NCBI GenBank assembly: GCA_027451985.1
Contig: DAIDHS010000001.1
Location: forward strand, 97,932 to 161,931
DNA from: Elusimicrobiota bacterium
GTDB taxonomy: Bacteria; Elusimicrobiota; Elusimicrobia; UBA1565; UBA9628
Direction of reading: 5' to 3'
Length of the DNA stretch: 64,000 nucleotides
The translations under genes were made by a program, and so were the position numbers. Below, one piece after another: positions 3,429-45,273 of the stretch (positions are counted from its first letter, which is position 1; each line of letters starts with the position of its first letter). The notes below the pieces were generated by a model that was not told where the DNA came from, searched no databases, and worked only from the letters and a program-made list of their open reading frames with translations.

Positions 3429-3441
3429 AGCGGAGCTCGCC

Positions 3442-4242: not shown

Positions 4243-4290
4243 AAGCGCGCTCTGCGGCCTCCTATTGGATTAAACTGGAATTTCGGGGAC

Positions 4291-25824: not shown

Positions 25825-28800
25825 ATGCGAGGGGAATTCCGTATGGGACTAAAGGCCTGGGGAACCCTGGGCCTTTTTAATCCACCTCGGGGGGCCATTA
25901 GACTCTCTTCAGGGCAACCGCTGACCAGTATTCTATTCACATACGCGCGCATGAAAAAGGTTCTTTATAAGCTGACGGCCGTCGTGGTGACGGGAGCGCT
26001 GTTGCTCCTGACTCCGGGCATTTCCTGCTATCAAGTTCTCGCGCAGGATGTCAGCGCCGAGAGCGAGCAGAGCCAGACTCCGGTCAACATGAACTTGGGC
26101 GGGCAACTGGAAACTGTCCCGCTTGAGCAGATGGCGGTTAATCCCGCCGCAGGCGGCCTTTACCAGCTTCCCGACATTCACGTCCCGCCGTCCGAAACCC
26201 TTCCGGTTGGCGCTTCAGCAGTAAAATCCGCGGCTCAATCCGTTTCCGCGTCGGCACAGGCCGCTTCCATTCGGGCGCAATCGGTGCCCGCTGTGGAGGG
26301 TGCGCAAACCGCCGCGGCGGCTCTGCCTGAGACGCCCGCTGCCGCGGCCCTCTCTAATGGCGCCGCGTCCGTTACTCAAGGGCGCGTCGGGACCAGACAG
26401 AGATATTCCCGCGCCGCGGCTTTGTCCGCCGCTCAGGATGGGAGGCAGGCAGTTCGCCTCGGGTCTTTGGGCTGGCTTCGGAGCACCGCCGGCAAGGTGC
26501 GTAGCTGGATTAAACCCGGCGCTTCGGCCGCGAACCTCAAATTTGAGTCCAACAAGTCTTTCGACGCGGCCTACGGGAAATCGGCGGCCGTTCCGTCTGC
26601 AGGAAAATCGGAATCTTTGAGACCCGGCCGCAAGGGGCGAATCGCAAGAACCCTGGGACTTGCCGGGGCCATCGCCGTGCCCGCTGCCGCGGCCGCCATT
26701 CCGCTGCCGGCGAAGGCTGCAGCCGTCGTACACGCCGCGGCCCATTCCGGCCTCATTCATAGCGTCGGGCTGACGTTCCACGCGATTTTGACGGCCATTG
26801 GCCCCGCCGGCATCCATGCCATTTACCTCAGTATGAATGTCTTGGCCGCCGGGTTGGCCTTGCCCGAAGTCCTGCGGACGTTCCGACGCGGCAGCGCGCA
26901 TCAGGTTCCCATGGGCGAGTTGACCATGGCCGTGGTCGGCTCCGCCATCTTCGGACTCATCATCGGCCCGATGAAAGGCTATTGGGGCTGGGCCGCGCAG
27001 AATAACTATGGCGGCTTGTCCATGCTGGCCGTTCTTCCCATCGGCTGGATTTTAGGCCGCGGGGGCGTCAAAATTTTCGGCAAGCGCTTCTGGGGTCCCA
27101 TCCCGGAGCCGCAAAAAACGGAGAATCCCTCCGCGGAAAAACCGGGGCTGCTCAGGCGCATATGGAACGGCTTCAAAGATCCCGCGGTTTTGAGAACCAT
27201 CGCGGCGGCGGCGCTCATCGGAGTTGCGGCCGTTGGGTTCACCCAATTGGCCGCCGCCGTTGGCCCGGCAATTTTCCCGCCGCTCTTGAATTTCGTCGCT
27301 TCCTTGTTCCCGACTACGGCTTCGGGCATGGGTCTTTTGACGGCAGCGGTGCTTTCGGTCCCCGGCTACATCGCGCTCAAGTGGCTGCGCGGGCTTTTGA
27401 AGAGCCCGGTGTCATGGAAAAAGAAGGCGCTGCTGGGACTGCCGCTTCTGGCCGCTTTCCCGGCGATGGCCTTCTGGCTTTGGCCGATGGCCAGCGCCGG
27501 GGCCTTGCCCATGACGGCGGACAAGCTCGTTTCACTCCTGAGCGGCTTGGGCGGGGGGCTCTTCGTCTTCTTGTTCGCTCCCGAGGTCATCCGGGCGTTG
27601 ATTGTGGGTGAGGATTCCTCCAAGCACTTCAACTGGCGAACGTCGCTTATTTTCTCGGTGGCAAGCTTGGGATTCCTGATTTATTGGGGCAACCAGTATT
27701 TCGTCAACCCCGCGTCGATGGGCGTGGCCATGTCCAACATGATCCAAAACGCCATCGGGGGGCTCTTCTCGACCATCAGCTTCTTGCTGGCTTGGAAGCA
27801 CAGAAACCATAAGGTGGCGTCGGCTGCGGAGGAGAACGGTAATGCCGCCCGCGTCGCTGCGGCCGGGGAGGCCGAAAAAATCTCAAATCCCGGACAGGCG
27901 CCTCCGGATCGCTCGCCGCCCGGAGAAAGTCCGGGCGCGCCTAAAACCGAGGGCGAAAACCTCTCGCCCCACGTTTACGAAAACATCTTCGGTTTTAGAG
28001 GAATCAAGGGCCGTTCCTACGCATCCGCCGACAGCAAACTCCAGCCTCTCACCTCTCGCTCCACATCATCCCAGATCGTCGATCGAATTTCCTTTCAATT
28101 TAATATCTCTCGTGACAAAGTATTACTTATAGCATCTCGGCAAGGGATTTCGGAGGCGGCTCCGGCTGCCAGGTGGTTGGCGGTCTACGAGCGGCTCCAG
28201 AAGTCCAACTACGAGCGGTTCAAGGAGTTGGATCACGCCAAGAACGCCGGCCATGGTCTTTTTGGCGAGGCGATCCGGAAAGCCTGGGCTCGGCTGCGGG
28301 GCAAGGCGGCGCCGGACACGGCAGGGTTCCGCAGACTCGCCAACAAGACCTATGCGCCCGGCGCCAAGGGAGTGCTCCAGCGCGCGGCCGGAGTCCATCG
28401 CCTCGTAATCGGCTTCTGGATCGGCTTTGTCTACGAGTGTTTCGACTCCTTCATCCTGGGCTACTTCCGGCAGGCGATAAGCTTCCATTTCCGCCACCGG
28501 AACGAGGACTTCCTAGGCATCGCCGCTGGGCGACAAGACGAACAGGCTGGCGCCTTGTCCGAAAACGCCCTGGCCGCCGCCATCGCCGGCGTCCAGGGCC
28601 GGGGCTTGACCGCGATGGAGCGTTTCAACGCGACGGCCGTGGGGCACGCCGTGTCCGGGGCGGTCATCCGGCCGTTCGTCCACCCCCTGCTGACGTTCCT
28701 GCGCCGCCGTTTAGTCATGGCTCTCCTAAGCGCCGTCGCCATGGGGTTTTTGGGCGCCGCCGCGCCAGCCATGCCGTTTCTGTCCATTTCAGTTTTGACC

Positions 28801-31800
28801 GTTCCGTTTTTAGGGCCGCTCATTTTGCACGCGTCGCATTTCTTCTTGTTCTCGGTTGCCTCGATTCCTGGGGTAGGCCATTTCTTGCTTCCCGTCGTGA
28901 CCAAGGCGGTCAACGCCTTACTCAAGGACTTGGTGCTGGGCCCCATGCTCAACACCTACGTGCTCTCGTTCCTGATGGCGCTCACGCGGCGCCCCGTTCG
29001 GCAGTGGTTGCCCGCGCTTAAGAGCGGTTCGTTCTGGTGGGAGAGTCTAAAGACGTACTTTGGCATGATGACCATCGGCGCCGAAATCGCCGGATGCTTG
29101 AGCTATTTCGCCGGCATCGACAGCGCCATTGACTCCCACGGCTTTTATCAGCTCATCGGCAAGCACATCCATAGCCATTTCCACCTATTCCACGCGCTGG
29201 GCTCGGCGGTGGAAAGCCCCAAGGGCCAAAGCCTCATTCCCTTCGGAGGCGCCATCACCTGGGGCAACGCCCTGCTCTACCACTTCCAAAACGCCATTCA
29301 CTTCAACATTTCCAACTGGATCGCGGTCCACCTTAATCCCGCGGCGCTGGCTCAGGGGGGAGCCCACCGCGCTTTCGAGATGGGGATTTCCAATCCCCTC
29401 CAGAGGGACTTCCAGTTCAATGCCAAGGACTACTTGGCTTCACCGAAGCAGGCTAAGGCGCGCCTCAAGCAGATGGACTCCAACGCGAGCTTCTCCGAAC
29501 TGAGAAAGGAACTGGCCGCTGCCAAAGCCCGGGAACAGGCGCTAAGCTCCGCGGAGGGCCAAGCACAGGACCAGATTCTAAAACTCAAAAAACAACGCCG
29601 GCCGATTACGCCTCAGGAAAAGGCAGAGTACCAGGCGCTATTGAAACAGCTTCAACGTCAGCGGGAAAACGTCTACGCCCAGAATAAGCTCGCGGAAATG
29701 CGCGACTTGAAGGGGCGCAACCCGAAGAGCGACCTTCTCCTGAAATTAACGGCGCTGAAAAAGCAATACGCCGGCCGGCTCAACCCCAAGCCGACGGACA
29801 AGACGGACTACTGGCACGATCTTGGAGTCAAGGAGTCGCAATACGCATCGATGGCCGCCCGGCTCTCGCAGATTGTCCAACCGGCCGGTGGGAATCCGCC
29901 GGACCCAAATGGCGCGGCGCGTTCTTCGGCAGCCAGCGGGGCCGCGTTGGCGGCTGTCAGTGCCGATGCCAGCAAAGACCTTGACGCCATTAAAAGTTCG
30001 ATTCAAAAAATAAACACCAAGCGGGAGGCTTTAAAGGGCGAACTTCTGCGCAAACAGGCCCTTGAGAAGCTCATGGACGCGGAAGCCCGCCTGCGCCAAA
30101 TCGCGCTGGACCAGCGCCGGGACGGCAAGGCGATGCAGGGTTTTCATCAGAGCCTCTCGCAGTTGGACTCGGTCATGGGACTGGCGCTGTCCCAGAACGA
30201 GCTCAACGCCGCCTTGAAGGCCATCAACCAGATGCAGACGCTCATCGGCAACAAGGACGCGACCATCAACCAATCCATCAGCCAAGATCAGGCCAACCTC
30301 CAACAGATTCAAAATCTGCTTAATCAGGAGCAGCAACAGTGGCAGCAGCAGGTCACCCAGCAGGTCAATTCGGACAACCAGGCGCAGAGTGACATGAAGT
30401 CGACCCAGGGAGAAGTCGTCAGCGTCATCTCGTCAGTCCAGACGTTCAGCCAGAGCGAGAAGAACCTCATCGCGAACATCAACACTACGGACGGTGGCGC
30501 CAGCGGCAACGCGCTGACTGAGTACGCCCGCCGCCTTGCGCTCATCCAAAACGGAACCATCGCGCAGTGGGAAAATTCGGGCGGCAATCCCAACGTGACC
30601 TTCACGATGAGCCAGCTAAACGGCTACCTCCAGCAGATTTCCGCGGGCATTCAAGAGGCCCAGAACGGCCTGCAGACGCTTGAGAAGGCTCCGCAAAATT
30701 TCGCGGAAACGGCCATTCTGGAGGTACCAGGGCCGGCGGTCAATGTGCCGCCTAATCCAAGTAAGGCGGATATTCTAAACATCTTGTCCCAGCGCCAAAC
30801 GTATTGGCAGAACGAGCTCAATAGCTACGAGAGCCTGCAGACCACCATCCGGGAAATGGGCGATCCGAACAACCACGCCATGACGCAGAACGTGTTCGGC
30901 GATTCGGAGCCGCAGTCCCTGCCGGTTTGGAAGAGCCAGGAGCAGGGTGTCCTGACCCAGGATCAGACCCAGATCGGCAAGGATACCCAGCAGATGGATC
31001 AAATGGCCGCCGCCGTCAACGCGGCGTTCGGATCCCATCTTCCCATGCTTTCCGGCCAGTCGCTGACCCAACTGCAGAGCGAGGTGCAGAACTACGCGAA
31101 CGATTTGACCGCCCTCAAGATGCCCTCCGGGACGGATCCCAAAACCGTGGAAGCCAAGATGAACTTGATCAACTTGGCATATCTGGTTTCGGACTTGGGC
31201 AACCAGGTCATCAACGCGAGCGTCGCTCAGCAGACGATCACCACCATCGACGGCGCCATGTCCACGACGCTGCCCCAGGCGGCGCAGGGCATCGATGCCA
31301 TCGTGCAGATGGTCAAGAACATCCTGGCGGACGAGCAGATGGACGTGGCCTACGTCAACGGCGACCAGGAGACGCAGCAGCAGGTTTTTACCCGGAAGGA
31401 AAACCTGCTGCAGAACGAGATTCTGCCGTCCCTGCAGCAAGCGCAGAGCATGCTGCAAAATGATCTAATTCCCTTCCAGCAGCAGACGATCGCGTCCTAT
31501 CAGCAAAGCAACTCCACCACGGGCTATTACTACCTATACACGACCAAGCAGTCGTTCCTGACGCAAATCGAGAGCCTCTATAACACCACCATGCCGTGGT
31601 CCATCGAGACGTTCGGGGGGGTGTCGGGAGACAAGGCGGGTTCCCTGCAGGACGTCGCCGCGTGGAAGACCCAGCTGCAGGGCTATTTGACGGGCTACAA
31701 GGACAGCAGCGGCGTCGAGCAGCAGGGCCTTGAGCAGGCTCTACAGGAAGCCAACGACCGCATGACCACGAACTTCAAGGGCAATTCCCAGGACCCTGCG

Positions 31801-34800
31801 ACGGAAACGGTCTACGGCGAGGTGCAGCCCTACAGTCTGCCTGACAAAATCACAAAGTATACGGCGGAAATGCAGACCCGCGTTAGTCAGCTCAATCAGA
31901 ACGACGTGAAGATCAATCAGATGCTGGAGGAGATTAAGACCCTTTCCAACGGACAATACGACTTGACGCAGTATCTGTTGCCGACCGGAGTGGGGACAGA
32001 TGCCGCGAGCGTCGCCAAGATTCAGGCCCTGATCAACGCGAACACCCTGCCTAGCCTGGGATCGGCCCTGCAGCAGGTCGCCAACGAAGCGCTGGCGGCT
32101 TCCGGGAGCACCAACATCAACATCGGCGGCGGCAACGGCAGCGTGCTCTCCGGCACCCAGCCGTCTCCCACCATTTCGAACGACCAGAAAATCGCCCTTT
32201 TGGCATCGCAAATCGGCCCCTTGCTGGCGCCGGCGAGTCAGAGCGTCACCAACCCGTCGGCGGGGGACACCACGGACGCGGTCGCGCGCTACATGTACTC
32301 GAACAGCGTCATCCAGGCCGCCCAGAACGGCGAGCAGTTCATCAATTCCACCGTCTATCCCTTCGTCCACCAGGGCATCCAGACCATCAACGACGCCGTC
32401 AACGACGCGAACAACCGCATCGCCTACATCAACTCGGGCGGAACGAGCATGACTCCGCAGCAGATCTACGATCAGGAGCTGAAGATTTTCAACGAACTCG
32501 GAGGCTTCCTGGATCAGGCGCAGAATTTCTTCGGGCAAAAGAGTAGCTTTGATTCGCAGTCCTTCAGCACGATTTCGAGCATCCTCAACTACTACCAGTC
32601 CTTGGAGACCATCGACCAGTCCGGCATCACCGCGGCCCAAGGCCAGTTGCAGGCGGACCAGACCATTTCCCAGGCGCTGCAGGCGGAGCAGACCAAGCTC
32701 CAGGGCCAGCTGAGTGAAATAAACGGCTGGCTGTCTCAGCTTAACGATCCGCACGACAGCGCCCTGCGGCGCACCAGCGACGCGATTTCCGCGATCATGG
32801 ACCAGACCCGGCAGGTTTTGGAGCAGAACATCAAATTCAAGGACCTGCAGAGCCAGCTGCGCGATTCCGATCAAATCATCCAATCCCAAACGCGCGAGCT
32901 TGAGGTTAAGCAGAAGAATCTGCAGTCTCTGATCGACGATTATGAAAAGAAGGCCGAGGGTCAGCCCTTGCCGCCGGCCGTTGCCCAGCAGGTGAAGGAC
33001 CTTAAGTTCGGGCAGGGTATGTGGGAGCAGGGCGGCCCCGACGGCAGCTATGTGGTCGTTCCTAAGTCCAAGTACCCTTCCTTCGTGCGGGCTCTCCTTA
33101 AAACTATCGCGCCGCAGGATTCCAACGACGCCATCGAGCAGATCGCCCAAAACCTCATCAGCAACCCCCAGAGCCTGATGAGTCTCATCCCAGGATCCCA
33201 AGTCATGAACTTCGGGAACTCCGCTGACGGCTTTTATATGGTCTACCAGACCAACTTGTCCATTCCAAACGGCGTTTCCACGGGCAATTCGGTCACTCTG
33301 GGCAACGTCGCCAGGATTTTCGGCAATAACATAAGCGTCGAGGGTTACCAGTTCGAAAGTCCGCCGGAAAGCCCATCGGGCGGCGCCAGCAACGCGCCGT
33401 GGGGGGACAAGGGCGTGGGCGTGCAGGTCGAGTCTCTGCAGGGCAAGAATTGGGTCAACTACCTGAACATCGACCTGCACCGCTTTGGCTTGAGCGTCCC
33501 GAACAACGACACCATGGCCGCGCAGGTCCAGCAGGACCGCATTCTTGTTTTCGACGACTATGCCATGATGGCCCTCAACGGCAAGCTCTACATCGGCTTG
33601 GCAGGTTTCGGAGACGGAGCGATTCATGACCCCAGCGGCAATCCCTACTACTATGGCGGCAATTTCAAGACCGCGATTCAAATGACTCCCGTCATTAGCT
33701 TGACGGCCCAGCAACAGGAGCTCTTTGCCAACGATCCGAGAAGCTTTCTTGAGAACGTGAACCTTGATTTTACGGGCAACGACCCCAGCTTGAATCAGAA
33801 CTTCGCCATCGCCGCGCAGGGAGACAGTAAGTCCTTTTCGCGCACCAAGCTGGGCACCAGCATAGACGTGGCCCAATGGCTCGCAGGCAATAAACAGAAG
33901 AGTTCGGACGCCTTTACGCTTGACCTGTATTATGACCGAATCCATGGGACGGACGACATCTCTCAGAATGCTTTGGGGGCCTCCGTCATAAAAGGATTTA
34001 CTCTCTACCGCGATAACGGCAAACCCTGGCTCAACATCACCAACAACGCTAGCGGCGAAGCCGGGCAGAAATACGACATGGCCTCGGATGACCTGACCAT
34101 CAACCTGCCCAACGGAATCGTCTTGAGCGGCAACGGACAGATTATGGGTTCCGAACGCGCCTACTACGGGCAGATTGCGAAAAAAATGACCGATACCAGC
34201 CAAATTCAGCTGGGCTACGGTTCGCCGGTCATTGGGATGAACAACCGGCTCAATCTGACGTTCGACTCGTCCTTCAGCCTGCGGCAGATTTGGGAAACGG
34301 TCAGCCGGCAGGCGGCCGATGATCTTCAGGGCGGGCAGGCTCTTAAGCCTTTCAAGAGATCCCTGGCGGATTTCCTCTCGGCCAACTCGGGCGACACGGC
34401 CGCCGCCGAACTTAAAAAAGTCTTCGATCATTACGCGGCCCAGGAACTCGTCGATTCGGACGCCATCGGAGATTTGTCCAAGCAAATCGGGGATTTGCAG
34501 AAAGCCGGTGCTTTCATGGATAACACGAAGGTGCAGTCCGTGTTGGGATTTACCAGCGGCGCCGTGTCCAATGACCCGACGGAGTTGGCCGTCGGCGGCG
34601 GGCCTGTGGTCGGCACGGAAACGACGATGACCATCTCCCGGACGCAAAAGGCGCTCATCGCGGACAAGACGGCGACCTTAATCCGGGACGGTCTGCAGCT
34701 TCAAGACACCATGGTGGGCGCCGCGCAGAAGTTTCAGGGCGCGGTCAAAGACGTGATTGAGGCTGAGGGCTCGCTGCGCATCGCGCAGGCCGCCGAGGCC

Positions 34801-37800
34801 CGCCTGCCCGCCGGCCCGCAGCGCGACGAGGCCCTGGTTCAAGCCGATCGGGCCCAGGCGCGACTCAATGAGGCGATCATCCGCTTCAACGTCATGACCG
34901 GCCGGCCTCCTGGCGCCCAATTTCCCTTGCAGGACCTCAGCGGCGCGACGCTTGAGGACTTGATGGCGCAACTAAAGCAGACCATCACCATGCCGGCTGG
35001 GCTGGCCAGGGTCCTGCACCAGGTCGATCCGCAGAAACTGCAGGCTCGCGTGGGCTCCAATCCCTTCAACATCCTGGATAAAATTCCGTGGGTCGAACGG
35101 ATGACTTTGGGTGTCGGCACCCAGCTTCAAGACAGCATGTCGAGCCAGCTTTTGGGCGCCGGCGGATCGGTCACGCTTCCCATCTACGACCCGACCTCTA
35201 AGGCGAAGAACCATGCCTATCGGCTTGAGAACAAGGCGGCCTTGGCGGAAATTTCCCAGGTCTATGAGGATCACGCGCGAGCTGTGGAAAAGGAGCTTTT
35301 TGAAAGCGGCTTGGCTGGCGACCAAAGCAAAACTCTGGGACCGGAACTGACGCAGGCTTCCAATAATTTAAATGAAGTGTCTGCGGCGTACCGCAACGGG
35401 CTGGCCGGGCCGGCGGAGCTTCAAAAGGCGTACCAGACCTGGATGTGGTATTACGACGCCTACAACGAAGCTCTGGCGACGAAGACTTTGGCCGACGCCT
35501 CCGCGTCTTTAGCGGGGAATTTCTTGTCGCCCGGCCAAGGCTGGAAGGGCGCGGCGGGTCTCATGGGGCCGGATTCTCCGCCGCTGGATTTGACCTCCCT
35601 GCCCCAGGCCGCGTCTTTGGCGGCCGCCCATTCCGGGTCTCTGGAGGAAATGGCGGCACGGGAGCAGGCGGCCCAGGCCATGACTCAGGCTGCAAGCCAC
35701 CGGATTCAGAAGGCCTCGCTCGACTTGTCTGTGGGAGGCAATCTCGTGGCCAGCGGAACGGGGTGGATCCCCAGCATCGGCATGACGGGTTTCCCGGTCA
35801 TGCCGATTTTCAACTTCAAGTTCGAACCTTCGGACTTGCGGGACTTGGACCAAGCCCAACACAAGGCCGAATCCAAATATTATGCCGCGATCAAGGGCAA
35901 GTTGCAGGCGGACTTGGCCTTTGAAATTTATCAAAACGTTCTTACTTACGAGACGTCGATTTCGGAATTGACGCAGTTAAACGACGTCGTCATCCCTCAG
36001 TTCGCAAAGGAGGCGCAGACCGCTTCCGCCGGTCCTGCCGAGGCCGCGGCCCGGCATCGGCTGGACCAAGCGAAGCTTGAGCGCGACGGCGTTTTGTACG
36101 CCGGAGCCCAGGCGCTGGCTTCGGTTAACATGCTTTTGGGTCGGAGCCCTTCCTCCCCTCTGCGTATCGACATTTCCCCGAAGACGGCGACCTTCGATCT
36201 CCAGAAACAATATAAAGCAGAGTCACCCGCGCAGATTCAAGATAAGGTCCTCGGGGCTCAGGTTCGGATCGCACGGACGGCCGAGACCATCACGGACCGG
36301 GGAGAGAAAATCCAGGAGTTGAGCACCGAGCCTGTGTCTCTCGTTGTGCGAGCCGCCGGGCGCTTGCTCCGGACGCTTAGCGGCAACGGCTTGGGTGACC
36401 CCGATTTAAAGCAACAGGCGTTGCTCGAAGACCTCAAAGCCCAGCGGGCGCTGGAGTCTTTCCGGAAAAACGTGCCGGTTGAGCGGGCTCAATTGGAGCA
36501 GCGGCTCGCGGTCGTGACAGACGCCATCTCGAGAACTTCTCCAGAAGGCTCATCCGCCGTCCAATTTATCGATCTCCAGTCTCAAAAAATGCTTCTGCAG
36601 GCCCAGTTGGCGAGTTTGCAAGGCATCGGCACGGAGGCTCCGATAGGCCAAGCCGCTCCTGGATCCGGCGCGCCGTCCGCGATGCCCGATAATTTCGCGG
36701 ACTTGCGCAACCGCCTCGAAACGGCGGAGCAGGGCGTGACGGCGCCGCCAGACGTTCAAGGTGCCGGCTTGGCCAATCCTCAAGTATCCAAGGCGCAACC
36801 CGAGTCCTTTACCCGCTTTTACTATTTGCGCCAGACTTTAGGCAAAACCCAGGTCCACCAGGGCTACTTGGAAAGCTGGCTCGAGGCCAGGCTGCGTTTC
36901 AGCGGCACGTCGCCCAGAGAGCTTCTCCGCCTTGAAAAGCTCCGGGAAGACGAGGAGGATCAGGACTATATGGCCGCGCAGTCCGCGGCCGCAGCCAAAG
37001 GCGACATCCTGGCGGCCGACTTCGCGGCCAAAGTGCAGACTTTCCGCTACATGAAAAAACACATCGGCGCCAAAGACCAGCGCCAAACGGACGAGGCGCT
37101 CACAAGCATACGCCACGCGCTCAAATCCGACGCGGTGCAGATCGCCGCGCTTCTGGGCCTGCCATTGGATGCGGCGGGTAAAGCGGGCGCGACGGACGAA
37201 ACGATGAAGGCATTGATGGCGCTGGTGCCCGAACAAACGGAAAATGCCCAGGCTGTCGGCCAAGATCTTATCAATCGATTGAACGATCAGAGCTTTGCGC
37301 ACATCGAGCAGATGCTGTTCAACGGCCAGGCCCCGATTCCCGGGACTAATTCCGCCGCGGCTTTGAGCGACATACGGACCGACATTCTGCTTAAGCACAT
37401 GGCCTCCTCAAACATCACTCCGGTCGCGGCTTTCGGCGTCTTTCGCGGCCAGCCGGTTGAGGGACTTTTCCTCAAGACCCCTGATCCGACGACCATCGAG
37501 GCGGGGCTTGAGAGCGTGCTTTCCAAGGACATGCTGGCCAAACTCAAGGCTAGCGGAGAACTGCAGGACCTCACCCTCCATTTGAGCCAGCTCATGCAGG
37601 CCGTGCATGACGACGCGCAGACGTTGGAGAGCCAGCGGCGGCTCATTCAGTCCGCCCAGGCGCAGTACGAGAATCTGCTCGCCCTGGGAACCCCGCAGGC
37701 CTCCGCGGAACTGCAGGCCGCCCAGCACGAACTTATCCAGGCTTGGCTCGACTTCAACAACCAGGCGGCGAAATCTAAGTCCGATGTCGTCGAGCTCTCC

Positions 37801-40800
37801 GGTGAAATCCAAGCGTTGGGTTATTCTCCAAGCCAAGAGGGGACTCTCCCTTCCTCCGACATAAGTCTCGAAGCGCAGCCCGCGCGCGAACTTTCTCGGG
37901 GCATGATGGCGTACTGGGCCGAGCGAACGGCGGCTTCAGATTTCGCGGCTCAAGAGCAGAATATCTTGGACGGATTTGGCCCATTGCTTTCTCAGGATTT
38001 CAAGGAGCGATTGGCCTCGGACATTCAATCTTGGAGCCAAGCCCGCGCCGAGGCTCGGCGTCTGCGCGCGGGCGATCTCCCAGCCGTTAAGAAAGACGCG
38101 CTTTTGGTTCAAAACGATGCGACGGGCAAGCAGGAGGCCGTGGAACAGGACTTGGCCGCCTTGGTCGACGCTTTGTCCTCGGCCGGGAACTCTTCCGCGG
38201 CGGCGTCCGGCGACCTGAAGCAGTTGCTGGTCTTCTTGCAGAATGATATGGATGTCCAAGCCAACGCCACGAAGGATCAGCGCCTAAAATACAACAAGAG
38301 CGTCGAGGAACTGCGCAAGACGTATTGGGACTCGCTGCGCCCCGGCTTGCCGCCCAAGGTCGCCGGAGCGTTCACGCGGCTCGAAGACCTGCAGCATAGT
38401 CTGCGCGGAGATTGGCAGAGCCTGCTCGATAGCTATATGGAGAACGGCTCCGGCACGGAGCCGTTCATCATGAAGGACGTTCAGCTGGATGCCTATCTTA
38501 AGGACCAGCACGCCTTCAACCAGGAGATCGTGGCTCTGCTGAAGTCCGACGAAGTGCGGAAGGATCCGGCCGCTCTGGAAGGCCTTGAGTCGCTCTACGA
38601 CGTGCGCACGGCCCTGGACCAGGAGATTGCGGTCGCCCGCTACGGCCGCGGCATGGCGGCCTTGGACGCGCTCATTGAGCTCGATCAGGTGCGTCTTGAC
38701 GCGGCGCGCGGGGAGAACAAGGGGCCGGATGCGATTGCGGCGGCGGTTCAAAGCCTGCAAACCCTCGAAGACATGAAGCAACGCTGGCTCAAAGGGCAGG
38801 ACTCGCTCCAGCCCGTCTACGCCGTGGTCCCCATTCAGAGCGACGGCCAGGACATGAACGTGGTGACGGAATGGCTGACCCAGAAGGAGATCGACGCCCG
38901 CCAAGCGGACGGGCAAGATGAGCCGCTTAAGCATGGCGGGACCATCACCGAGGAGGGCGGCAAGTACTATCTTAACTCCGCGGGGGGAGGGCGATTCCTT
39001 ATTCGCTCAGGAGTGGACCAACTCCAGAGTGGCGTGGACGCCGCGCAAGCAGCGCTGGATCAGAACCAGAGCGTCATCGATTTGGGCTTTAAAGCCGATT
39101 TCGTGTCCGATAAGTTTATCGATGGCAGGCCTGTGAGCCAGTACTCGGTGCAACAAGTCTTCGGCTTGGTGCCGCCTCCCAAGGCTGACGTCGGGTCCCC
39201 GCCGCCTGAACAGCCCCTGTTCCTGTTCTATCAAGTTTCTGGCGCGCCGAGCCTGGGAACGGGGGAAAACGCCGACGCCTTCAGTCGCCTCTTGCCCGAG
39301 GCCATCGCTTTGACGGAAAGCCCGAAGGATTACGCGGTTTACGTCTACACTGGGCCGGAGAAGCTTTCTTATGACAATTTCCCGACGCTCCAGAGCCTTA
39401 AGGATTCCCCGGAATACAAGGACGTGCAGAAGCTGACCCTGACGCCGACGGGTGCCTCCGACGCCTCGATGCTGGCCCGCGGCAGGGGCCTGATCTCGCT
39501 GCGCAAAGGGTGGATCGCGCTCAAGCTCAATAGCTATGGCTTTGCGCTGGACGGCCAGAATCTCGTGAAGGTGTACCAGAGCCGCGATGAGTTCGACGCC
39601 TCGCAAGAGCGGCTGGAGAACGCCAAAGACAATCTTGCCGAGGCCCAGGCGGCTCTTAAACGAGACAGGGCGATCAAAGATGCGGAAAAAAATAAATTCG
39701 ATTCCATTGAGGCCGAGTACAATACTCAACTCGCGAAGTATCAAAAGGCGCTGAACTCCCGGAAACAGCAGTTGGAGAAAATGGCCTTAGGCGATTTGTC
39801 CCAAAAGCCCGGCGAACCCGACGCTTTTTATAAAGTCCGCGTGGAAAGCAAGGTTGACTTCCTCATCAAGGGCGACGCGAAATACCGGGCCATCATGAAA
39901 AATCTTGCTCCCTACGCAAAGAAATTCGATGCTGAGAAGCTCAAGAACGACGCGGCCCAGGCCCAGGCTGATGACGACCAGAAAGCCGTGGACAAGGCCA
40001 GTGCTGTTTTGGCCGACGCGCAGAAATGGAGCTTATACAGGACGGACAATCTCTCGCTGGAATTGGCCGGAGATGGGACGCTCGTGGCCGTCAAGGCGTC
40101 CCCGGCTTACGGTGGAAATTTGCTGAATGAAACTTTGGCCGACGAAGGTCAGAGCGTCCCCGCGAACCCCGTTCTTGTTAATGGGGCCCTTTACGCCGTC
40201 GTTCTAGATGGCGCAGGCCGCGTGGTCAAGACATTCCAAACTTCGGATGCGGTGGAGAAGGCGGCCAAGACTTGGACGATGGAAAGCGTGAGTATGAACC
40301 CGAATGGCGCCGCAGTGGAAAGCGGCGGACGAATCATGACTAACTATCGTCTGGATTATTATGAGGACCCAGCCACCAAGCTGCCAGTTGAGCTCAGCGA
40401 GCGCTACGTGCGCGATCGGGTCGAGCACGACAAACGCAGCCTCTTCTACCGCGAACATTGGGGCTTGATGCCGCAGAATTGGTTCAGCTTGGTCATGAAC
40501 GTGCCGGATCAGATCGTCGGGACTCCCATCGAACTAGCCGGACGGGATCCGAACCAGCAGCATTATCTGGGGCGCGTCAATATGAACCACAGCGAGGGCG
40601 GGGAGACGCAGCATCACGGATTTTTCCGCAACGCCCTGGGTTTCGTGGACGTGCTCGACCTGTTGCCGGACCCGGTGAAGATTTACAACGACCCCAGCCA
40701 GTTCCCCGCGCAATCCCGAATTAGTTCCCCAGTCATGCCGGGCCAGGACATCTACTCGAAGTCCCTGCGCAATCCTAAAGACGGAGAGAACGTCCATTTC

Positions 40801-41658
40801 GGCGCCAAGGCCGTGGCCCAGGGCTTGCAGTACTCTCTTGAGGATTTAACCGACGCCCAGCAACAGACGCTGAGCTATTTCCGGGGCGGCTACGAAGATT
40901 TGATCATCAGCCGCATGCGAGGGCGTGATGGGACGTATGAGGAATCCCAAAGGACGGCCCGCAGCGGCGGCGGTGCCATTGCGAGCAAGCTCGAGGATCA
41001 GGGCACCCGAGACGAGGCTTACGATCCGCTTGCGGCGGCGGACGCCCGTTCTGCCATGCATGGAGTTACGGAGACGGCCAGCCCTGATAATGTCTTGACC
41101 GAACGAGTGGAACGGCGCGTGAAAATTCAGCTTGGGGCCAAGCAGTATAATCAGGCGGCTGATGGGTTTAAGGCCTATTCCAAGGATATAAATGGTGCGA
41201 TTAGCAAAGAGAAAAAAGAGCGAGAGGGGCTTGCAGGATCTTTAAGCGCTGAGCAGGCGGCTTTAGAAAATGCTTTAGCCGCCAGGAATGACGCGCAATC
41301 GAGCCTGGATAAGACATGGTCCAAGTACCACGCGCTGGAATTGCGCATGGGGGCGGAAAAAGCTTTGGAGCAGGGAATTGTCTTGTGGCAGAAGCGCGCT
41401 AATGATTTGGCGGCGCAGTTCAAGACGGCGCAGGCTCAAGCCGACACCATGAGGAACCAGCTTCAGCAAGCCGCTGGCCTCGCCGCCGCGAGCCGCACCT
41501 CGTCCCGGCAGGCCGCCGCGACTTCGTTCCCGTCTCCGGCGCAGCCAAAGACGCCGATTTGGCCGTGGATCTTTTTCTTGGGCGGACTCGTCAGCCTTTT
41601 GGCGGCGGCGTGGGAAGCACTGCGCCATAGAATATTACGCGCCAAGCGTATTGACTAA
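25825..41658 (+). CDS. giant 5277-aa protein: N-terminal polytopic membrane domain, ~4000-aa Gln-rich helical region with a central beta-rich island, and a C-terminal TM anchor; alternative start at 25951 places the signal peptide at the N-terminus
   Basis: One uninterrupted frame of 15.8 kb. From M43 (nt 25951) the sequence is MKKVLYKLTAVVVTGALLLLTPGISCYQVLAQD. More than 15 hydrophobic helices lie in aa ~270-1150. The following ~4 kb of protein is Q/A/L/N-rich helical low complexity (QEQQQWQQQVTQQVNSDNQAQ ...). A beta-strand-like block sits at nt ~33200-34300 (GNSVTLGNVARIFGNNISVEGYQFE...TLDLYYDRIHG...TFDSSFSLRQIW). The C-terminus PIWPWIFFLGGLVSLLAAAWEALRHRILRAKRID is a tail anchor. Confidence 0.7.
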   Translation: MRGEFRMGLKAWGTLGLFNPPRGAIRLSSGQPLTSILFTYARMKKVLYKLTAVVVTGALLLLTPGISCYQVLAQDVSAESEQSQTPVNMNLGGQLETVPLEQMAVNPAAGGLYQLPDIHVPPSETLPVGASAVKSAAQSVSASAQAASIRAQSVPAVEGAQTAAAALPETPAAAALSNGAASVTQGRVGTRQRYSRAAALSAAQDGRQAVRLGSLGWLRSTAGKVRSWIKPGASAANLKFESNKSFDAAYGKSAAVPSAGKSESLRPGRKGRIARTLGLAGAIAVPAAAAAIPLPAKAAAVVHAAAHSGLIHSVGLTFHAILTAIGPAGIHAIYLSMNVLAAGLALPEVLRTFRRGSAHQVPMGELTMAVVGSAIFGLIIGPMKGYWGWAAQNNYGGLSMLAVLPIGWILGRGGVKIFGKRFWGPIPEPQKTENPSAEKPGLLRRIWNGFKDPAVLRTIAAAALIGVAAVGFTQLAAAVGPAIFPPLLNFVASLFPTTASGMGLLTAAVLSVPGYIALKWLRGLLKSPVSWKKKALLGLPLLAAFPAMAFWLWPMASAGALPMTADKLVSLLSGLGGGLFVFLFAPEVIRALIVGEDSSKHFNWRTSLIFSVASLGFLIYWGNQYFVNPASMGVAMSNMIQNAIGGLFSTISFLLAWKHRNHKVASAAEENGNAARVAAAGEAEKISNPGQAPPDRSPPGESPGAPKTEGENLSPHVYENIFGFRGIKGRSYASADSKLQPLTSRSTSSQIVDRISFQFNISRDKVLLIASRQGISEAAPAARWLAVYERLQKSNYERFKELDHAKNAGHGLFGEAIRKAWARLRGKAAPDTAGFRRLANKTYAPGAKGVLQRAAGVHRLVIGFWIGFVYECFDSFILGYFRQAISFHFRHRNEDFLGIAAGRQDEQAGALSENALAAAIAGVQGRGLTAMERFNATAVGHAVSGAVIRPFVHPLLTFLRRRLVMALLSAVAMGFLGAAAPAMPFLSISVLTVPFLGPLILHASHFFLFSVASIPGVGHFLLPVVTKAVNALLKDLVLGPMLNTYVLSFLMALTRRPVRQWLPALKSGSFWWESLKTYFGMMTIGAEIAGCLSYFAGIDSAIDSHGFYQLIGKHIHSHFHLFHALGSAVESPKGQSLIPFGGAITWGNALLYHFQNAIHFNISNWIAVHLNPAALAQGGAHRAFEMGISNPLQRDFQFNAKDYLASPKQAKARLKQMDSNASFSELRKELAAAKAREQALSSAEGQAQDQILKLKKQRRPITPQEKAEYQALLKQLQRQRENVYAQNKLAEMRDLKGRNPKSDLLLKLTALKKQYAGRLNPKPTDKTDYWHDLGVKESQYASMAARLSQIVQPAGGNPPDPNGAARSSAASGAALAAVSADASKDLDAIKSSIQKINTKREALKGELLRKQALEKLMDAEARLRQIALDQRRDGKAMQGFHQSLSQLDSVMGLALSQNELNAALKAINQMQTLIGNKDATINQSISQDQANLQQIQNLLNQEQQQWQQQVTQQVNSDNQAQSDMKSTQGEVVSVISSVQTFSQSEKNLIANINTTDGGASGNALTEYARRLALIQNGTIAQWENSGGNPNVTFTMSQLNGYLQQISAGIQEAQNGLQTLEKAPQNFAETAILEVPGPAVNVPPNPSKADILNILSQRQTYWQNELNSYESLQTTIREMGDPNNHAMTQNVFGDSEPQSLPVWKSQEQGVLTQDQTQIGKDTQQMDQMAAAVNAAFGSHLPMLSGQSLTQLQSEVQNYANDLTALKMPSGTDPKTVEAKMNLINLAYLVSDLGNQVINASVAQQTITTIDGAMSTTLPQAAQGIDAIVQMVKNILADEQMDVAYVNGDQETQQQVFTRKENLLQNEILPSLQQAQSMLQNDLIPFQQQTIASYQQSNSTTGYYYLYTTKQSFLTQIESLYNTTMPWSIETFGGVSGDKAGSLQDVAAWKTQLQGYLTGYKDSSGVEQQGLEQALQEANDRMTTNFKGNSQDPATETVYGEVQPYSLPDKITKYTAEMQTRVSQLNQNDVKINQMLEEIKTLSNGQYDLTQYLLPTGVGTDAASVAKIQALINANTLPSLGSALQQVANEALAASGSTNINIGGGNGSVLSGTQPSPTISNDQKIALLASQIGPLLAPASQSVTNPSAGDTTDAVARYMYSNSVIQAAQNGEQFINSTVYPFVHQGIQTINDAVNDANNRIAYINSGGTSMTPQQIYDQELKIFNELGGFLDQAQNFFGQKSSFDSQSFSTISSILNYYQSLETIDQSGITAAQGQLQADQTISQALQAEQTKLQGQLSEINGWLSQLNDPHDSALRRTSDAISAIMDQTRQVLEQNIKFKDLQSQLRDSDQIIQSQTRELEVKQKNLQSLIDDYEKKAEGQPLPPAVAQQVKDLKFGQGMWEQGGPDGSYVVVPKSKYPSFVRALLKTIAPQDSNDAIEQIAQNLISNPQSLMSLIPGSQVMNFGNSADGFYMVYQTNLSIPNGVSTGNSVTLGNVARIFGNNISVEGYQFESPPESPSGGASNAPWGDKGVGVQVESLQGKNWVNYLNIDLHRFGLSVPNNDTMAAQVQQDRILVFDDYAMMALNGKLYIGLAGFGDGAIHDPSGNPYYYGGNFKTAIQMTPVISLTAQQQELFANDPRSFLENVNLDFTGNDPSLNQNFAIAAQGDSKSFSRTKLGTSIDVAQWLAGNKQKSSDAFTLDLYYDRIHGTDDISQNALGASVIKGFTLYRDNGKPWLNITNNASGEAGQKYDMASDDLTINLPNGIVLSGNGQIMGSERAYYGQIAKKMTDTSQIQLGYGSPVIGMNNRLNLTFDSSFSLRQIWETVSRQAADDLQGGQALKPFKRSLADFLSANSGDTAAAELKKVFDHYAAQELVDSDAIGDLSKQIGDLQKAGAFMDNTKVQSVLGFTSGAVSNDPTELAVGGGPVVGTETTMTISRTQKALIADKTATLIRDGLQLQDTMVGAAQKFQGAVKDVIEAEGSLRIAQAAEARLPAGPQRDEALVQADRAQARLNEAIIRFNVMTGRPPGAQFPLQDLSGATLEDLMAQLKQTITMPAGLARVLHQVDPQKLQARVGSNPFNILDKIPWVERMTLGVGTQLQDSMSSQLLGAGGSVTLPIYDPTSKAKNHAYRLENKAALAEISQVYEDHARAVEKELFESGLAGDQSKTLGPELTQASNNLNEVSAAYRNGLAGPAELQKAYQTWMWYYDAYNEALATKTLADASASLAGNFLSPGQGWKGAAGLMGPDSPPLDLTSLPQAASLAAAHSGSLEEMAAREQAAQAMTQAASHRIQKASLDLSVGGNLVASGTGWIPSIGMTGFPVMPIFNFKFEPSDLRDLDQAQHKAESKYYAAIKGKLQADLAFEIYQNVLTYETSISELTQLNDVVIPQFAKEAQTASAGPAEAAARHRLDQAKLERDGVLYAGAQALASVNMLLGRSPSSPLRIDISPKTATFDLQKQYKAESPAQIQDKVLGAQVRIARTAETITDRGEKIQELSTEPVSLVVRAAGRLLRTLSGNGLGDPDLKQQALLEDLKAQRALESFRKNVPVERAQLEQRLAVVTDAISRTSPEGSSAVQFIDLQSQKMLLQAQLASLQGIGTEAPIGQAAPGSGAPSAMPDNFADLRNRLETAEQGVTAPPDVQGAGLANPQVSKAQPESFTRFYYLRQTLGKTQVHQGYLESWLEARLRFSGTSPRELLRLEKLREDEEDQDYMAAQSAAAAKGDILAADFAAKVQTFRYMKKHIGAKDQRQTDEALTSIRHALKSDAVQIAALLGLPLDAAGKAGATDETMKALMALVPEQTENAQAVGQDLINRLNDQSFAHIEQMLFNGQAPIPGTNSAAALSDIRTDILLKHMASSNITPVAAFGVFRGQPVEGLFLKTPDPTTIEAGLESVLSKDMLAKLKASGELQDLTLHLSQLMQAVHDDAQTLESQRRLIQSAQAQYENLLALGTPQASAELQAAQHELIQAWLDFNNQAAKSKSDVVELSGEIQALGYSPSQEGTLPSSDISLEAQPARELSRGMMAYWAERTAASDFAAQEQNILDGFGPLLSQDFKERLASDIQSWSQARAEARRLRAGDLPAVKKDALLVQNDATGKQEAVEQDLAALVDALSSAGNSSAAASGDLKQLLVFLQNDMDVQANATKDQRLKYNKSVEELRKTYWDSLRPGLPPKVAGAFTRLEDLQHSLRGDWQSLLDSYMENGSGTEPFIMKDVQLDAYLKDQHAFNQEIVALLKSDEVRKDPAALEGLESLYDVRTALDQEIAVARYGRGMAALDALIELDQVRLDAARGENKGPDAIAAAVQSLQTLEDMKQRWLKGQDSLQPVYAVVPIQSDGQDMNVVTEWLTQKEIDARQADGQDEPLKHGGTITEEGGKYYLNSAGGGRFLIRSGVDQLQSGVDAAQAALDQNQSVIDLGFKADFVSDKFIDGRPVSQYSVQQVFGLVPPPKADVGSPPPEQPLFLFYQVSGAPSLGTGENADAFSRLLPEAIALTESPKDYAVYVYTGPEKLSYDNFPTLQSLKDSPEYKDVQKLTLTPTGASDASMLARGRGLISLRKGWIALKLNSYGFALDGQNLVKVYQSRDEFDASQERLENAKDNLAEAQAALKRDRAIKDAEKNKFDSIEAEYNTQLAKYQKALNSRKQQLEKMALGDLSQKPGEPDAFYKVRVESKVDFLIKGDAKYRAIMKNLAPYAKKFDAEKLKNDAAQAQADDDQKAVDKASAVLADAQKWSLYRTDNLSLELAGDGTLVAVKASPAYGGNLLNETLADEGQSVPANPVLVNGALYAVVLDGAGRVVKTFQTSDAVEKAAKTWTMESVSMNPNGAAVESGGRIMTNYRLDYYEDPATKLPVELSERYVRDRVEHDKRSLFYREHWGLMPQNWFSLVMNVPDQIVGTPIELAGRDPNQQHYLGRVNMNHSEGGETQHHGFFRNALGFVDVLDLLPDPVKIYNDPSQFPAQSRISSPVMPGQDIYSKSLRNPKDGENVHFGAKAVAQGLQYSLEDLTDAQQQTLSYFRGGYEDLIISRMRGRDGTYEESQRTARSGGGAIASKLEDQGTRDEAYDPLAAADARSAMHGVTETASPDNVLTERVERRVKIQLGAKQYNQAADGFKAYSKDINGAISKEKKEREGLAGSLSAEQAALENALAARNDAQSSLDKTWSKYHALELRMGAEKALEQGIVLWQKRANDLAAQFKTAQAQADTMRNQLQQAAGLAAASRTSSRQAAATSFPSPAQPKTPIWPWIFFLGGLVSLLAAAWEALRHRILRAKRID

Positions 41659-45272: not shown

Positions 45273-45273
45273 A

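Follow-up and report, generated by a model that had tools for sequence, protein, structure and literature searches.

We have analysed a 64,000-nucleotide stretch of Elusimicrobiota DNA (the window), whose source MAG consists of 107 contigs and whose genome is 95%-complete. The window holds a conserved four-gene cluster, here called A to D, and the last gene, D, encodes the giant protein with which we are mainly concerned. The arrangement A-B-C-D, in which A encodes ~850 aa, B ~1,100 aa, and C 2,500–3,100 aa, recurs in the three families of the order. Of 12 related loci, 8 have a conserved counterpart of the first ~380 aa of gene A, located 17–20 kb upstream of the giant; positional homologues of gene B in related clusters measure ~1,050–1,200 aa, and gene C lies upstream of the giant on one contig in several genera. 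A neighbouring divergent operon under c-di-GMP control was left out of the system, since none of the 12 related loci examined shows it in synteny with the giant. The features are collected in Table 1.

Table 1. Genes of the cluster and segments of the giant protein, with positions in the window.
Feature	Residues	Position (nt)	Strand	Remarks
Gene A	861 aa	12813..15398	+	Bitopic: charged N-terminus, TM at aa 58, Gly/Ser/Asn-rich remainder
Gene B	872 aa	15555..18173	+	Cys-containing, signal peptide
Gene C	2,460 aa	18354..25736	+	Signal peptide, TM, SF2 ATPase, variable C-terminal module
Giant gene D, most likely start	~5,235 aa	25951..41658	+	Listed ORF begins 25825
Signal-like N-terminus	aa 43–74	25951..26046	+	Motif TPG-I-S-C-Y
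Variable N-terminal region	aa 75–690	26047..27894	+	Low-complexity Ala/Ser/Pro stretch, ~7 hydrophobic helices
Conserved all-helical membrane domain	aa 690–1250	27892..29574	+	AlphaFold model
Gln/Asn-rich region	aa 1251–2444	29575..33156	+	Helix-type periodicity
Beta island	aa 2471–2818	33235..34278	+	20 predicted amphipathic strands, modelled as outer-membrane barrel wall
Three TolC-like units	aa 2901–3437	34525..36135	+	Each a beta-hairpin, then two long antiparallel helices
Conserved C-terminal part	aa 3438–5244	36136..41556	+	1,800 aa
C-terminal TM helix	aa 5245–5266	41557..41655	+	W-x-W motif before, Arg/Lys-rich tail after

Gene D is a real gene—a single ORF of 5,277 codons (25825–41658, forward strand), much as an earlier note on this DNA had described it. 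More than 80 MAG assemblies of Elusimicrobiota, independent of one another, contain uninterrupted homologues of 4,300–5,900 aa; full-length homologues are carried by 35 of 41 related genomes, and the same unbroken frame at similar length is found in dozens of independent assemblies, including the closed chromosome CP096137.1. All of this supports an intact frame. One could still argue that the ORF is an artefact of assembly or annotation, or a decaying gene with no such protein behind it, given that the MAG is in 107 contigs and that the Logan contigs over gene D (four runs from one mine-drainage study) are short, none of them spanning the gene, with a summed depth of ~2–10x in the best run and less in the other three. 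However, these contigs contain no indels or joints over gene D, the gene is conserved over its whole length, and its frame recurs unbroken as described; we give this explanation almost no credence. Translation likely starts at the ATG at 25951: ORF codons 1–42 have aligned residues in only 20% of homologues, and in the closest relative the giant begins at the equivalent Met, the upstream piece being a separate short ORF in another frame, whose end runs over the ATG of the giant. Codons 1–42 of the listed ORF are thus probably untranslated.

Forty-nine full-length protein relatives of gene D were found at E <= 1e-53, and a search of 1.84 billion cluster representatives gave 108 matches, of which all but a few are giants or fragments thereof. 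The protein was found in 6 of 121 Elusimicrobiota genomes sampled, and thus not in most of the phylum. Homologues can be aligned from aa ~700 through to the end, with 30–68% identity in that part. Divided into overlapping pieces and compared over its full length with Pfam and NCBIfam, the giant gave chance-level matches only, with no Pfam match at E <= 0.1 on any part, and family profiles of aa 690–1250, 1251–2444, 2440–3640, and 4500–5277 retrieved nothing from the PDB save generic coiled-coil noise in two C-terminal segments.

The giant probably begins at the ATG at nt 25951, with the signal-like segment that the earlier note had recognised there, and the motif of this segment also occurs in other large proteins of the same genome. 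The region that follows (aa 75–690) is weakly conserved and differs greatly in length between homologues. A polytopic N-terminal membrane region had also been claimed, and this holds: the first 1,060 aa contain ~13 peaks of hydrophobicity, counted at a 19-residue Kyte-Doolittle mean of >= 1.6. The conserved membrane domain was modelled by AlphaFold with a pLDDT of 79.5 and a pTM of 0.75; its TM helices fall at ~aa 860–1097, and it contains the invariant motif GGAITWG. Searches of this model against solved folds gave nothing convincing, whether by Foldseek (best E 0.16) or by an exhaustive VIA-align search (best Z 6.6). Arg clusters beside the conserved TM helices follow the pattern expected if the chain exits to the periplasm after ~aa 1097.

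At the other end of the chain, the C-terminal TM helix and its basic tail are kept in nearly all full-length homologues. The earlier note had called this a classic tail anchor: the helix stands, the class does not. Tail-anchored proteins have one TM at the extreme C-terminus, without an N-terminal signal or other TM; the giant has a signal-like N-terminal segment and ~12 further hydrophobic helices, so its last TM is better described as a stop-transfer anchor than as an entrant on the tail-anchor route. A sorting signal of the exosortase/PEP-CTERM type was also considered. Such signals consist of a motif, a TM and a basic tail, recur in many proteins of a genome and have a cognate sortase. The genome, 95% complete, yielded no match to Exosortase_EpsH, no NCBIfam sorting domain matched the giant's C-terminal tail, and a genome-wide ORF scan returned 18 C-terminal TM-plus-basic-tail matches, with a loosely similar aromatic lead-in in 2 of the 18. 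We rejected this type of signal because no exosortase was found and because the tail is not common to many proteins; the giant may carry a cleaved C-terminal signal of some other kind. Complex prediction for aa 839–1189 together with the C-terminal 219 aa of the giant scored 0.00, a result that counts neither for nor against contact between the two ends.

Between its membrane parts, the giant had been described as ~4000 aa of Gln-rich helix, perhaps a coiled coil spanning hundreds of nm. The Gln-richness is there in part—Gln makes up 10–16% of aa 1250–2500 and 4–10% elsewhere, and aa 1500–2500 are rich in Gln, Asn, Ser, and Thr—while beyond the beta island the helices are separated by beta-hairpins. 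Fibrous coiled-coil tethers run for hundreds to thousands of residues in an uninterrupted helix or heptad register, and their length often varies between species. The longest stretch of the giant free of Pro and Gly is 78 aa, the two together number 5–19 per 100 aa all through aa 1200–5277, and the longest modelled helices have at most 68 residues (~10 nm). Segment lengths are fixed to ~3% across 49 homologues, and the identity of 30–68% over the alignable length is as expected for folded domains. These results do not support a fibrous coiled coil hundreds of nm long. Coiled-coil-like segments do occur at ~aa 4600–4726 and 5090–5217, to either side of a highly conserved block at aa 4900–4950.

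The Gln/Asn-rich region is of constant length (1,164–1,211 aa in 50 family members) and includes an internal tandem duplication (~aa 1660–1990 and 1990–2330). Across the giant, a search for internal repeats found this duplication and a faint likeness among the three TolC-like units, with no long repeat array. The ESM Atlas gave no usable match for aa 1251–2450, and no relatives could be detected for aa 1251–2444 and 3641–5244 (~3,000 aa together). In the model of the central part, helical hairpins go on to at least aa 3640. We rejected a TolC-like nature for the flanks: when aa 1200–2470 and 3600–5277 were compared by hhalign with the OEP profile and with the giant's own centre, no probability exceeded 1.1%, apart from self-overlap.

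The beta island is the best-conserved part of the giant. The earlier note had pointed to a beta-rich block at nt ~33200–34300 and had raised the possibility of a barrel or sandwich domain, perhaps at the outer membrane; the model places its 20 strands in almost exactly this interval, and beta-type hydrophobic periodicity is seen in 74–93% of windows over aa 2500–2800. The AlphaFold model of aa 2445–3640 consists of the 20 strands, then three units of a beta-hairpin and two long helices. Its pLDDT is 69 overall, mostly 70–94 in the barrel and the helices and below 50 in the third hairpin and several linkers. The top Foldseek matches to this model are TolC, OprM, and CmeC (E 2.9e-5, probability 1.0), with LptD and TonB-dependent barrels ranking after them. 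VIA-align superposes it on the Fiu barrel, of the 22-stranded outer-membrane barrel class, with Z 17.0 over 293 aligned residues, and on OprM with Z 15.3 and an rmsd of 3.5 A over 308 aligned residues (chain residues 59–449). Together, these comparisons predict that the giant's centre is a beta-barrel of the outer membrane to which helical hairpins like those of TolC are fused. Some of the VIA-align barrel matches reach over the first two TolC-like hairpins, which suggests, at the level of the model, that strands and hairpins form one common sheet; if all three hairpins join the 20 strands, the sheet would have 26, and from the alignment ranges we infer a single closed 26-strand barrel. The even strand count and the TolC-like helices would place both flanks of the barrel in the periplasm.

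The host is a diderm whose genome encodes BamA and has at least 14 genes for OEP proteins, and the likeness of the giant to these proteins is fainter in sequence than in the model. ESM Atlas features point to OEP/TolC clusters (0.95), and hhalign of aa 2880–3660 against six OEP paralogues of the genome gave weak matches in three registers (86.3, 78.7, and 72.2%; E 4.8e-6 to 3.3e-5). The OEP sequence model, searched against the genome in six frames at E <= 1, produced 30 matches, all of them outside the giant. No TolC chain came up when the PDB was searched with the family profile, and neither the OEP model nor that of another family was significant on the giant. The TolC-likeness thus rests on a medium-confidence model and a 72–86% profile match.

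Gene C was described in the earlier note as a SecA-like motor, a likeness that extends to the general motor fold and no further. SecA is a DEAD motor with preprotein cross-linking and wing/scaffold domains; Pfam matches gene C to ResIII (E 1.6e-6) and DEAD (E 1.7e-3), with no SecA family among the matches listed up to E 5, and NCBI labels a homologue as a DEAD/DEAH box helicase family protein. Gene C is therefore best classed as an SF2 (ResIII/DEAD-type) ATPase. It has a signal peptide and a presumed periplasmic part of ~850 aa, followed by a TM at aa 887 and the ATPase (Walker A GGGKT at 1677, DEYD at 1763), and from ~aa 2324 it ends in the variable module; no sequence relative was found in the PDB. 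Close relatives have swapped C-terminal modules. In one relative, 84% identical, the tail matches the toxin domain CdiA_C (E 2e-20), and between it and the giant lies a gene of 138 aa, small like the genes for immunity proteins. Such toxin-like tails were seen in one genus only, and in other genera gene C stops ~20 aa past a conserved LKSSGI motif; Pfam found no toxin domain on the C-termini of ten homologues from other genera, nor on the tail of the window's own gene C.

Membrane anchors at both ends give the giant the appearance of a one-chain bridge or channel, and the fold evidence favours the envelope-spanning conduit or tether that the earlier note had proposed. Our tentative reading, to which we would give somewhat less than an even chance, is that gene D encodes the conduit or scaffold of a new machine across the envelope, built as a single chain that runs from the inner membrane to the outer membrane and back. 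One chain of ~5,235 residues would cross the whole diderm envelope twice. From a polytopic inner-membrane domain at the N-terminus, ~1,200 aa of folded helical periplasmic domains would lead to the 20-strand outer-membrane barrel; the three TolC-like hairpins would follow, each adding a strand pair to the barrel and a ~10-nm helix pair hanging into the periplasm, and conserved domains in the periplasm, ~1,800 aa more, would return the chain to the stop-transfer TM helix in the inner membrane. The giant would then act as the channel or scaffold component of a lineage-specific machine encoded by A-B-C-D, with energy supplied by the membrane-anchored SF2 ATPase of gene C and cargo, possibly including gene C's own swappable C-terminal modules, passing through or along the TolC-like tunnel. 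Topology, oligomeric state, channel activity, partnership with gene C, and cargo are all things that we infer here.

A more specific version of this reading joins several claims: that A-B-C-D is a previously unrecognised secretion or delivery system across the envelope, confined to one order of free-living Elusimicrobiota; that the giant polypeptide unites an inner-membrane platform, a duct through the periplasm, and a monomeric outer-membrane pore of 26 strands, its TolC-like tunnel helices included; and that export is powered by a membrane-anchored SF2 ATPase able to carry exchangeable toxin modules. Taken jointly, these claims are doubtful. Two points count against the main reading itself: TolC works as a trimer, and we know of no outer-membrane barrel that is followed by 2,400 residues returning to the inner membrane.

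Comparison with known systems brings out what the giant would share with them and where it departs. Outer membrane factors are homotrimers with a 12-strand barrel and a 12-helix tunnel, free-standing proteins of ~420–500 aa, with OEP normally present in two copies per protein. The giant's modelled units have the same beta-hairpin and two long antiparallel helices as TolC, OprM, and CmeC (OEP, PF02321), its model superposes on OprM over almost the whole protomer, and TolC-like motifs, LPIYDP and N-x-LLGR among them, appear in its alignment with the OEP paralogues, where the profile similarity is weak but repeated. In contrast to these proteins, the giant is not detected by the OEP model, has three units per chain rather than two per protomer of a trimer, and carries its units behind 20 extra strands, in mid-chain, with inner-membrane anchors at both ends of 5,235 aa. 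Long antiparallel amphipathic strands are shared by its model with TonB-dependent (22 strands), LptD (26), and OprD/Occ barrels. TonB-dependent transporters have a plug domain with a TonB box, and LptD an N-terminal jellyroll; Pfam found no Plug, TonB_dep_Rec, or LptD match on the giant, and the barrel walls alone align. The giant thus differs in having no plug, TonB box, or jellyroll, and in a barrel that is internal to the chain rather than C-terminal. Like systems with a TolC-type exit duct, it would combine an inner-membrane part, periplasmic helical hairpins, and a duct, with an ATPase encoded alongside; unlike them, it puts all but the ATPase on one polypeptide, its membrane domain matches no RND, ABC, or MFS fold, and the ATPase is of SF2 helicase type rather than an ABC protein.

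The same architecture could instead serve as a structural staple that ties the outer to the inner membrane and sets the width of the periplasm, the TolC-like helices being rigid struts rather than a tunnel. Near-constant segment lengths are what one would expect of a spacer, both ends have membrane anchors, and the cluster holds no recognisable substrate, ABC transporter, or adaptor protein. A barrel with long periplasmic helices also recalls, from general knowledge, the barrel-plus-stalk tethers OmpM and SlpA, of which the giant would be a functional analogue; along with TamB/AsmA proteins, which are very large and anchored in the inner membrane, these join the outer membrane to an inner layer over the periplasm by means of one protein. 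The giant differs from all of them in its inner-membrane anchors at both ends and in having neither an SLH domain nor the AsmA/TamB beta-taco signature by Pfam, which likewise found no other peptidoglycan-binding domain (OmpA, LysM) in it. Furthermore, it is not obvious why a spacer should need a polytopic domain of 480 aa that is conserved and has invariant polar motifs, or a conserved 2,500-aa ATPase next door, and a protein not found in most of the phylum is not a general tether of Elusimicrobiota. We consider the staple rather unlikely.

Giant proteins of Elusimicrobia, Omnitrophota, and related bacteria have been read as surface or predatory weapons, according to a preprint (bioRxiv 10.1101/2023.11.21.568195) as cited in PMC12057145. 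Following that line, the gene D product could be a surface adhesin or fibre, anchored by its barrel and with its Gln/Asn/Thr-rich mass mostly outside the cell, as in other bacterial giants; the composition of aa 1500–2500 and an N-terminal signal common to other large proteins would agree with this. The family, however, does not vary in length as adhesins do, has a single internal duplication only, and yielded no Ig, cadherin, RHS, beta-helix, or carbohydrate-binding repeats in Pfam and NCBIfam. The conserved C-terminal TM with its basic tail and the predicted periplasmic position of both barrel flanks also speak against an extracellular mass, and we regard an adhesin as improbable.

If the conduit or scaffold reading is right, a chain running from the inner membrane to its own outer-membrane barrel and TolC-type helices and then back again would represent a novel design for such a bridge; to our knowledge, all known envelope-spanning machines of diderms—efflux pumps, type I–X secretion systems, Lpt, Tam—are multi-protein. 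It would pose the question of how BAM deals with a barrel that has thousands of residues on either side in a chain of 5,000, and would offer a natural "fused" model for the docking of TolC-like ducts onto inner-membrane partners. Relatives cannot be recognised for more than 80% of the giant, nor for the conserved cluster of ~30 kb as a whole, which makes the locus a compact entry to unexplored envelope biology in a poorly known phylum.

A last comparison concerns gene C. Like CdiA, it has a large conserved body with a swappable C-terminal module, and in the one relative with a CdiA_C tail and a small gene behind it, these adjoin the gene for a predicted outer-membrane barrel protein, as in CdiB/CdiA. 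The system differs from CdiB/CdiA in having no FhaB/haemagglutinin repeats, TPS domain, or Omp85/POTRA transporter, and the body of gene C differs from CdiA in holding an SF2 ATPase behind a TM helix, with the C-terminal module missing from most genera. Where they do occur, the toxin-like modules on the gene C ATPase hint that the system may serve bacteria in competing with one another.

Gene D, the final gene of the conserved cluster A-B-C-D, occupies one open frame of 5,277 codons, the numbering of which is used here for the giant protein. A single 15.8-kb frame had been claimed in an earlier note, and the claim is borne out both by this frame and by similar-sized ones in independent assemblies; related open frames of 4,500-5,800 aa occur in 35 of 41 related genomes, in three families of one order. 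Across the gene, Logan contigs (four runs, one study) likewise show no indels or joints; given how short and shallow these contigs are, integrity is better supported by the independent assemblies. Metagenome runs containing the sequence are from mine drainage, and the source genome comprises 2.4 Mb (107 contigs, 95% complete, the window lying on contig 1). Judged from these sequences the giant is a real gene, and an artefactual frame is hardly credible. Its likely start lies downstream of the first 42 codons, which are probably untranslated, because only one fifth of homologues have residues aligning to them and because the giant of the closest relative's locus (L030) starts at the equivalent Met (MKRLLHKL versus MKKVLYKL in the window); in L030 the upstream piece is a separate 45-codon ORF in another frame, overlapping the giant's ATG. 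The ~125 nt preceding the likely start are conserved between both loci (translated motif GLKAW..LGLF, out of frame with the giant in L030) and may be a leader or regulatory element.

Among 5.8 billion proteins searched, 49 matched as full-length homologues (3,200-5,734 aa); all of them lack a name or are called "hypothetical", none contains a Pfam domain, and those with a named source all come from uncultured Elusimicrobiota. The family profile, run against 1.84 billion cluster representatives, retrieved only 108 proteins, nearly all giants or giant fragments, and the central region is present in 80 loci of GTDB genomes, one a closed chromosome. Beyond the order, the sole relative seen (3,785 aa, 28% identical) belongs to one other family; of 121 genomes sampled throughout the phylum, 115 yielded no giant. 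The searchable literature held no description of the family—giant-gene papers mention Elusimicrobia in general terms only. Several MAGs carry two paralogues, at ~40-45% and ~35% identity to the query, and a shorter clade of 3,500-4,000 aa exists.

In the full-length alignment, aa 1-690 are variable and conservation is then unbroken up to the C-terminus, peaking at aa 2450-2950 (45-68% identity) and aa 4900-4950. Segment lengths are strikingly constant; aa 1250-2450 corresponds to 1,164-1,211 residues in 50 of 50 sequences. Such conservation of sequence and length is, as we read the alignment, a mark of folded domains rather than spacer coils. A fibrous, Gln-rich coiled coil of ~4000 aa, as first proposed, is not borne out: the longest stretch free of Pro and Gly is 78 residues, and the Gln-richness holds for aa 1250-2500 (10-16% Gln) and falls below that level elsewhere. 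We rejected the coiled-coil rope on its Pro/Gly breaks, its short modelled helices and this conservation; the longest helix in the central model has 68 residues (~10 nm), a length like that seen in TolC. Internal repetition is limited to one tandem duplication of ~340 aa in the Gln-rich region, which window profiles recovered in the majority of family members (best E 1.7e-10). Searches of the giant detected neither adhesin-type repeats nor any enzymatic or peptidoglycan-binding domain.

The central beta-rich island, in contrast to the rope, stands. Family-averaged hydrophobicity is mostly helical in periodicity over aa 1300-2500 and of beta type in 74-93% of windows over aa 2500-2800, and an AlphaFold model of aa 2445-3640 (48-sequence alignment; mean pLDDT 69, rising to 70-94 in most barrel strands and long helices) places 20 strands, each 7-15 residues long, at aa 2471-2818. 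Next come three units, each a beta-hairpin with two long helices (aa 2901-3024, 3092-3231 and 3294-3437), and more helical hairpins lie past the third. Foldseek ranks TolC-family outer-membrane factors first for this model (E 2.9e-5, probability 1.0, TM 0.5-0.6 on target), then LptD and TonB-dependent receptor barrels. VIA-align places model residues 17-487 on the Fiu barrel (Z 17.0, 293 residues) and 516-997 on OprM (Z 15.3, rmsd 3.5 A, 308 residues). Several barrel matches reach model residue ~670, spanning the first two TolC-like hairpins, which suggests that the strands of these hairpins belong to the barrel sheet; with all three joined, the strand count of the barrel would be 26.

Language-model features of the centre also point to OEP/TolC clusters (0.95), and a profile built from six true OEP paralogues of the same genome can be aligned with aa 2880-3660 in three registers (72-86% probability); the flanking regions gave no such similarity, and the OEP Pfam model did not match the giant. 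The central 550 aa would work like TolC-family ducts but fail that family's sequence test, and may be distantly related to them; the 350-aa barrel wall resembles generic large outer-membrane barrels but lacks their accessory domains. The organism is a diderm able to assemble such barrels, since its genome encodes BamA and at least 14 OEP genes. At least 80% of the giant, everything outside the barrel wall and TolC-like part, is without a detectable relative.

The claimed signal-like opening, multiple N-terminal hydrophobic helices and C-terminal transmembrane segment are all seen by hydropathy: a signal-like segment (aa 46-68), about six helices in the variable region, a conserved cluster (aa 860-1054) and a single C-terminal helix (aa 5245-5266). 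In nearly all full-length homologues a W-x-W or FWAW motif precedes the last helix and an Arg-rich tail follows. By our own reading of the sequence the charges obey the positive-inside rule, with RRR before the helix at aa 960, RRPVRQ behind that ending at aa 1054 and one further hydrophobic helix at aa 1073-1097; this fits an exit of the chain to the periplasm after ~aa 1097, and a cytoplasmic C-terminus fits the basic tail behind the last helix. AlphaFold confidently models the conserved membrane domain (aa 690-1250) as all-helical (pLDDT 79.5, pTM 0.75), and neither Foldseek (best E 0.16) nor an exhaustive VIA-align search (best Z 6.6) matched this model to anything in the PDB. The N-terminal signal ends in [ST]-P-G-[LIV]-x-[CA]-Y, common to at least six large proteins of the genome (778-5,280-codon ORFs), possibly a lipobox-like or sorting motif peculiar to the lineage.

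In several genera a gene C homologue (2,400-3,100 aa) is encoded on the giant's contig, upstream of it, gene B has positional homologues of ~1,100 aa, and in 8 of 12 related loci the first 380 aa of gene A recur at a distance of 17-20 kb on the giant's upstream side. The neighbouring motor had been called SecA-like; gene C does encode an ATPase, of the SF2 type (ResIII match, E 1.6e-6; GGGKT at 1677, DEYD at 1763), with a long presumed periplasmic part. This was the only recognisable family in genes A, B and C. Many relatives have, between genes C and D, a ~300-aa protein with an IS200-type Y1 transposase-like domain and a DnaA-type C-terminal HTH, probably a domesticated regulator; the window has no such gene.

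Features of the giant's locus and related loci (window positions unless a locus of a related genome, L, or a contig is named)
Feature	Position	Strand	Remarks
Gene A	12813-15398		bitopic protein
Gene B	15555-18173		signal peptide, Cys-containing
Gene C	18354-25736	+	2,460 aa; signal peptide, TM helix at aa 887, SF2 ATPase
Gene C tail module	25323-25733	+	aa 2324-2460
Giant, open frame	25825-41658	+	
Giant, likely gene	25951-41658	+	~5,235 aa
Conserved stretch before start	25825-25950; L030 12199-12336		
[ST]-P-G-[LIV]-x-[CA]-Y signal	25951-26046		others on genome contigs C3, C12
Tandem duplication	30802-32814		aa ~1660-2330
Genes downstream of giant	41695-47082		
c-di-GMP-I riboswitch (GGC type)	9633-9707	-	61.8 bits
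Riboswitch operon	8005-9627, 5960-7957, 4518-5948, 3442-4242	-	
Y1 + DnaA-HTH protein	L019 18376-19293; L020 18419-19324; L023 2580-3569; L025 17167-18060; L027 1269-2171		immediately upstream of giant
Closest relative's gene C region	L030 4375-12148		
TPR protein, other genus	L031 1630-3300		
Paralogues or shorter clade	L076, L082, L080, L093 and others; G026:C99, G025:C21, G132:C3		

In most genera gene C stops ~20 residues past a conserved LKSSGI motif; in the window's genus, extra modules of ~135 aa are appended. Identity between the window's gene C and an 84%-identical relative ends abruptly at aa ~2323, where the relative continues into a CdiA_C toxin domain (Pfam, E 2e-20). In L030 the CdiA_C-tailed gene C is followed by a 138-aa gene and then the giant; this small gene has a weak SitI3 immunity-family match on record, and our own Pfam scan of it gave none. 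The tail of the window's gene C matched no Pfam family, shares 33% identity with the end of an unrelated TPR protein in another genus, and is followed by no immunity-sized gene. Polymorphic toxins are recognised by just this combination, a conserved body and a C-terminal module that can be exchanged, and the resemblance suggests that the cluster's machine could deliver cargo.

We propose that the giant is a one-chain bridge running from the inner membrane to the outer membrane and back, an architecture that we consider probable. The N-terminal polytopic domain and C-terminal helix would anchor it to the inner membrane, and folded, mostly helical domains (~1,200 and ~1,800 residues) would form its periplasmic legs; the barrel and TolC-type helices would make an outer-membrane pore and tunnel. 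ATP-driven work would fall to gene C at the inner membrane, and an accessory role in the envelope to genes A and B. A conduit function is possible, and we hold it tentatively. The main rival, a purely structural staple holding two membranes at a set distance, would explain the invariant segment lengths equally well but leaves both the conserved polytopic domain and the ATPase partner unexplained; we consider it less likely than a conduit. That the giant is a surface adhesin is improbable. As a bridge, the giant would be an outer-membrane channel-tunnel with unprecedented architecture; the stronger reading, that giant and cluster form a new type of trans-envelope system, is possible but less likely than not.

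Directly downstream of the giant are a Cache-HAMP-PAS histidine kinase and a LysM plus glucodextranase-B-like protein, with, on the other strand, a protein with a glucodextranase SLH-like C-terminal module; the kinase and glucodextranase-like genes were not found beside the giant in related loci, examined on the upstream side. On the strand opposite to the giant, a c-di-GMP-I riboswitch precedes an operon that shows no synteny with the giant in relatives. We know of no flagella in this lineage; the operon's products (a TPR protein, a FliG_M/FliG_C-plus-TPR protein, an unknown protein and a MotA/ExbB-family channel) are a rotor/stator-like set.
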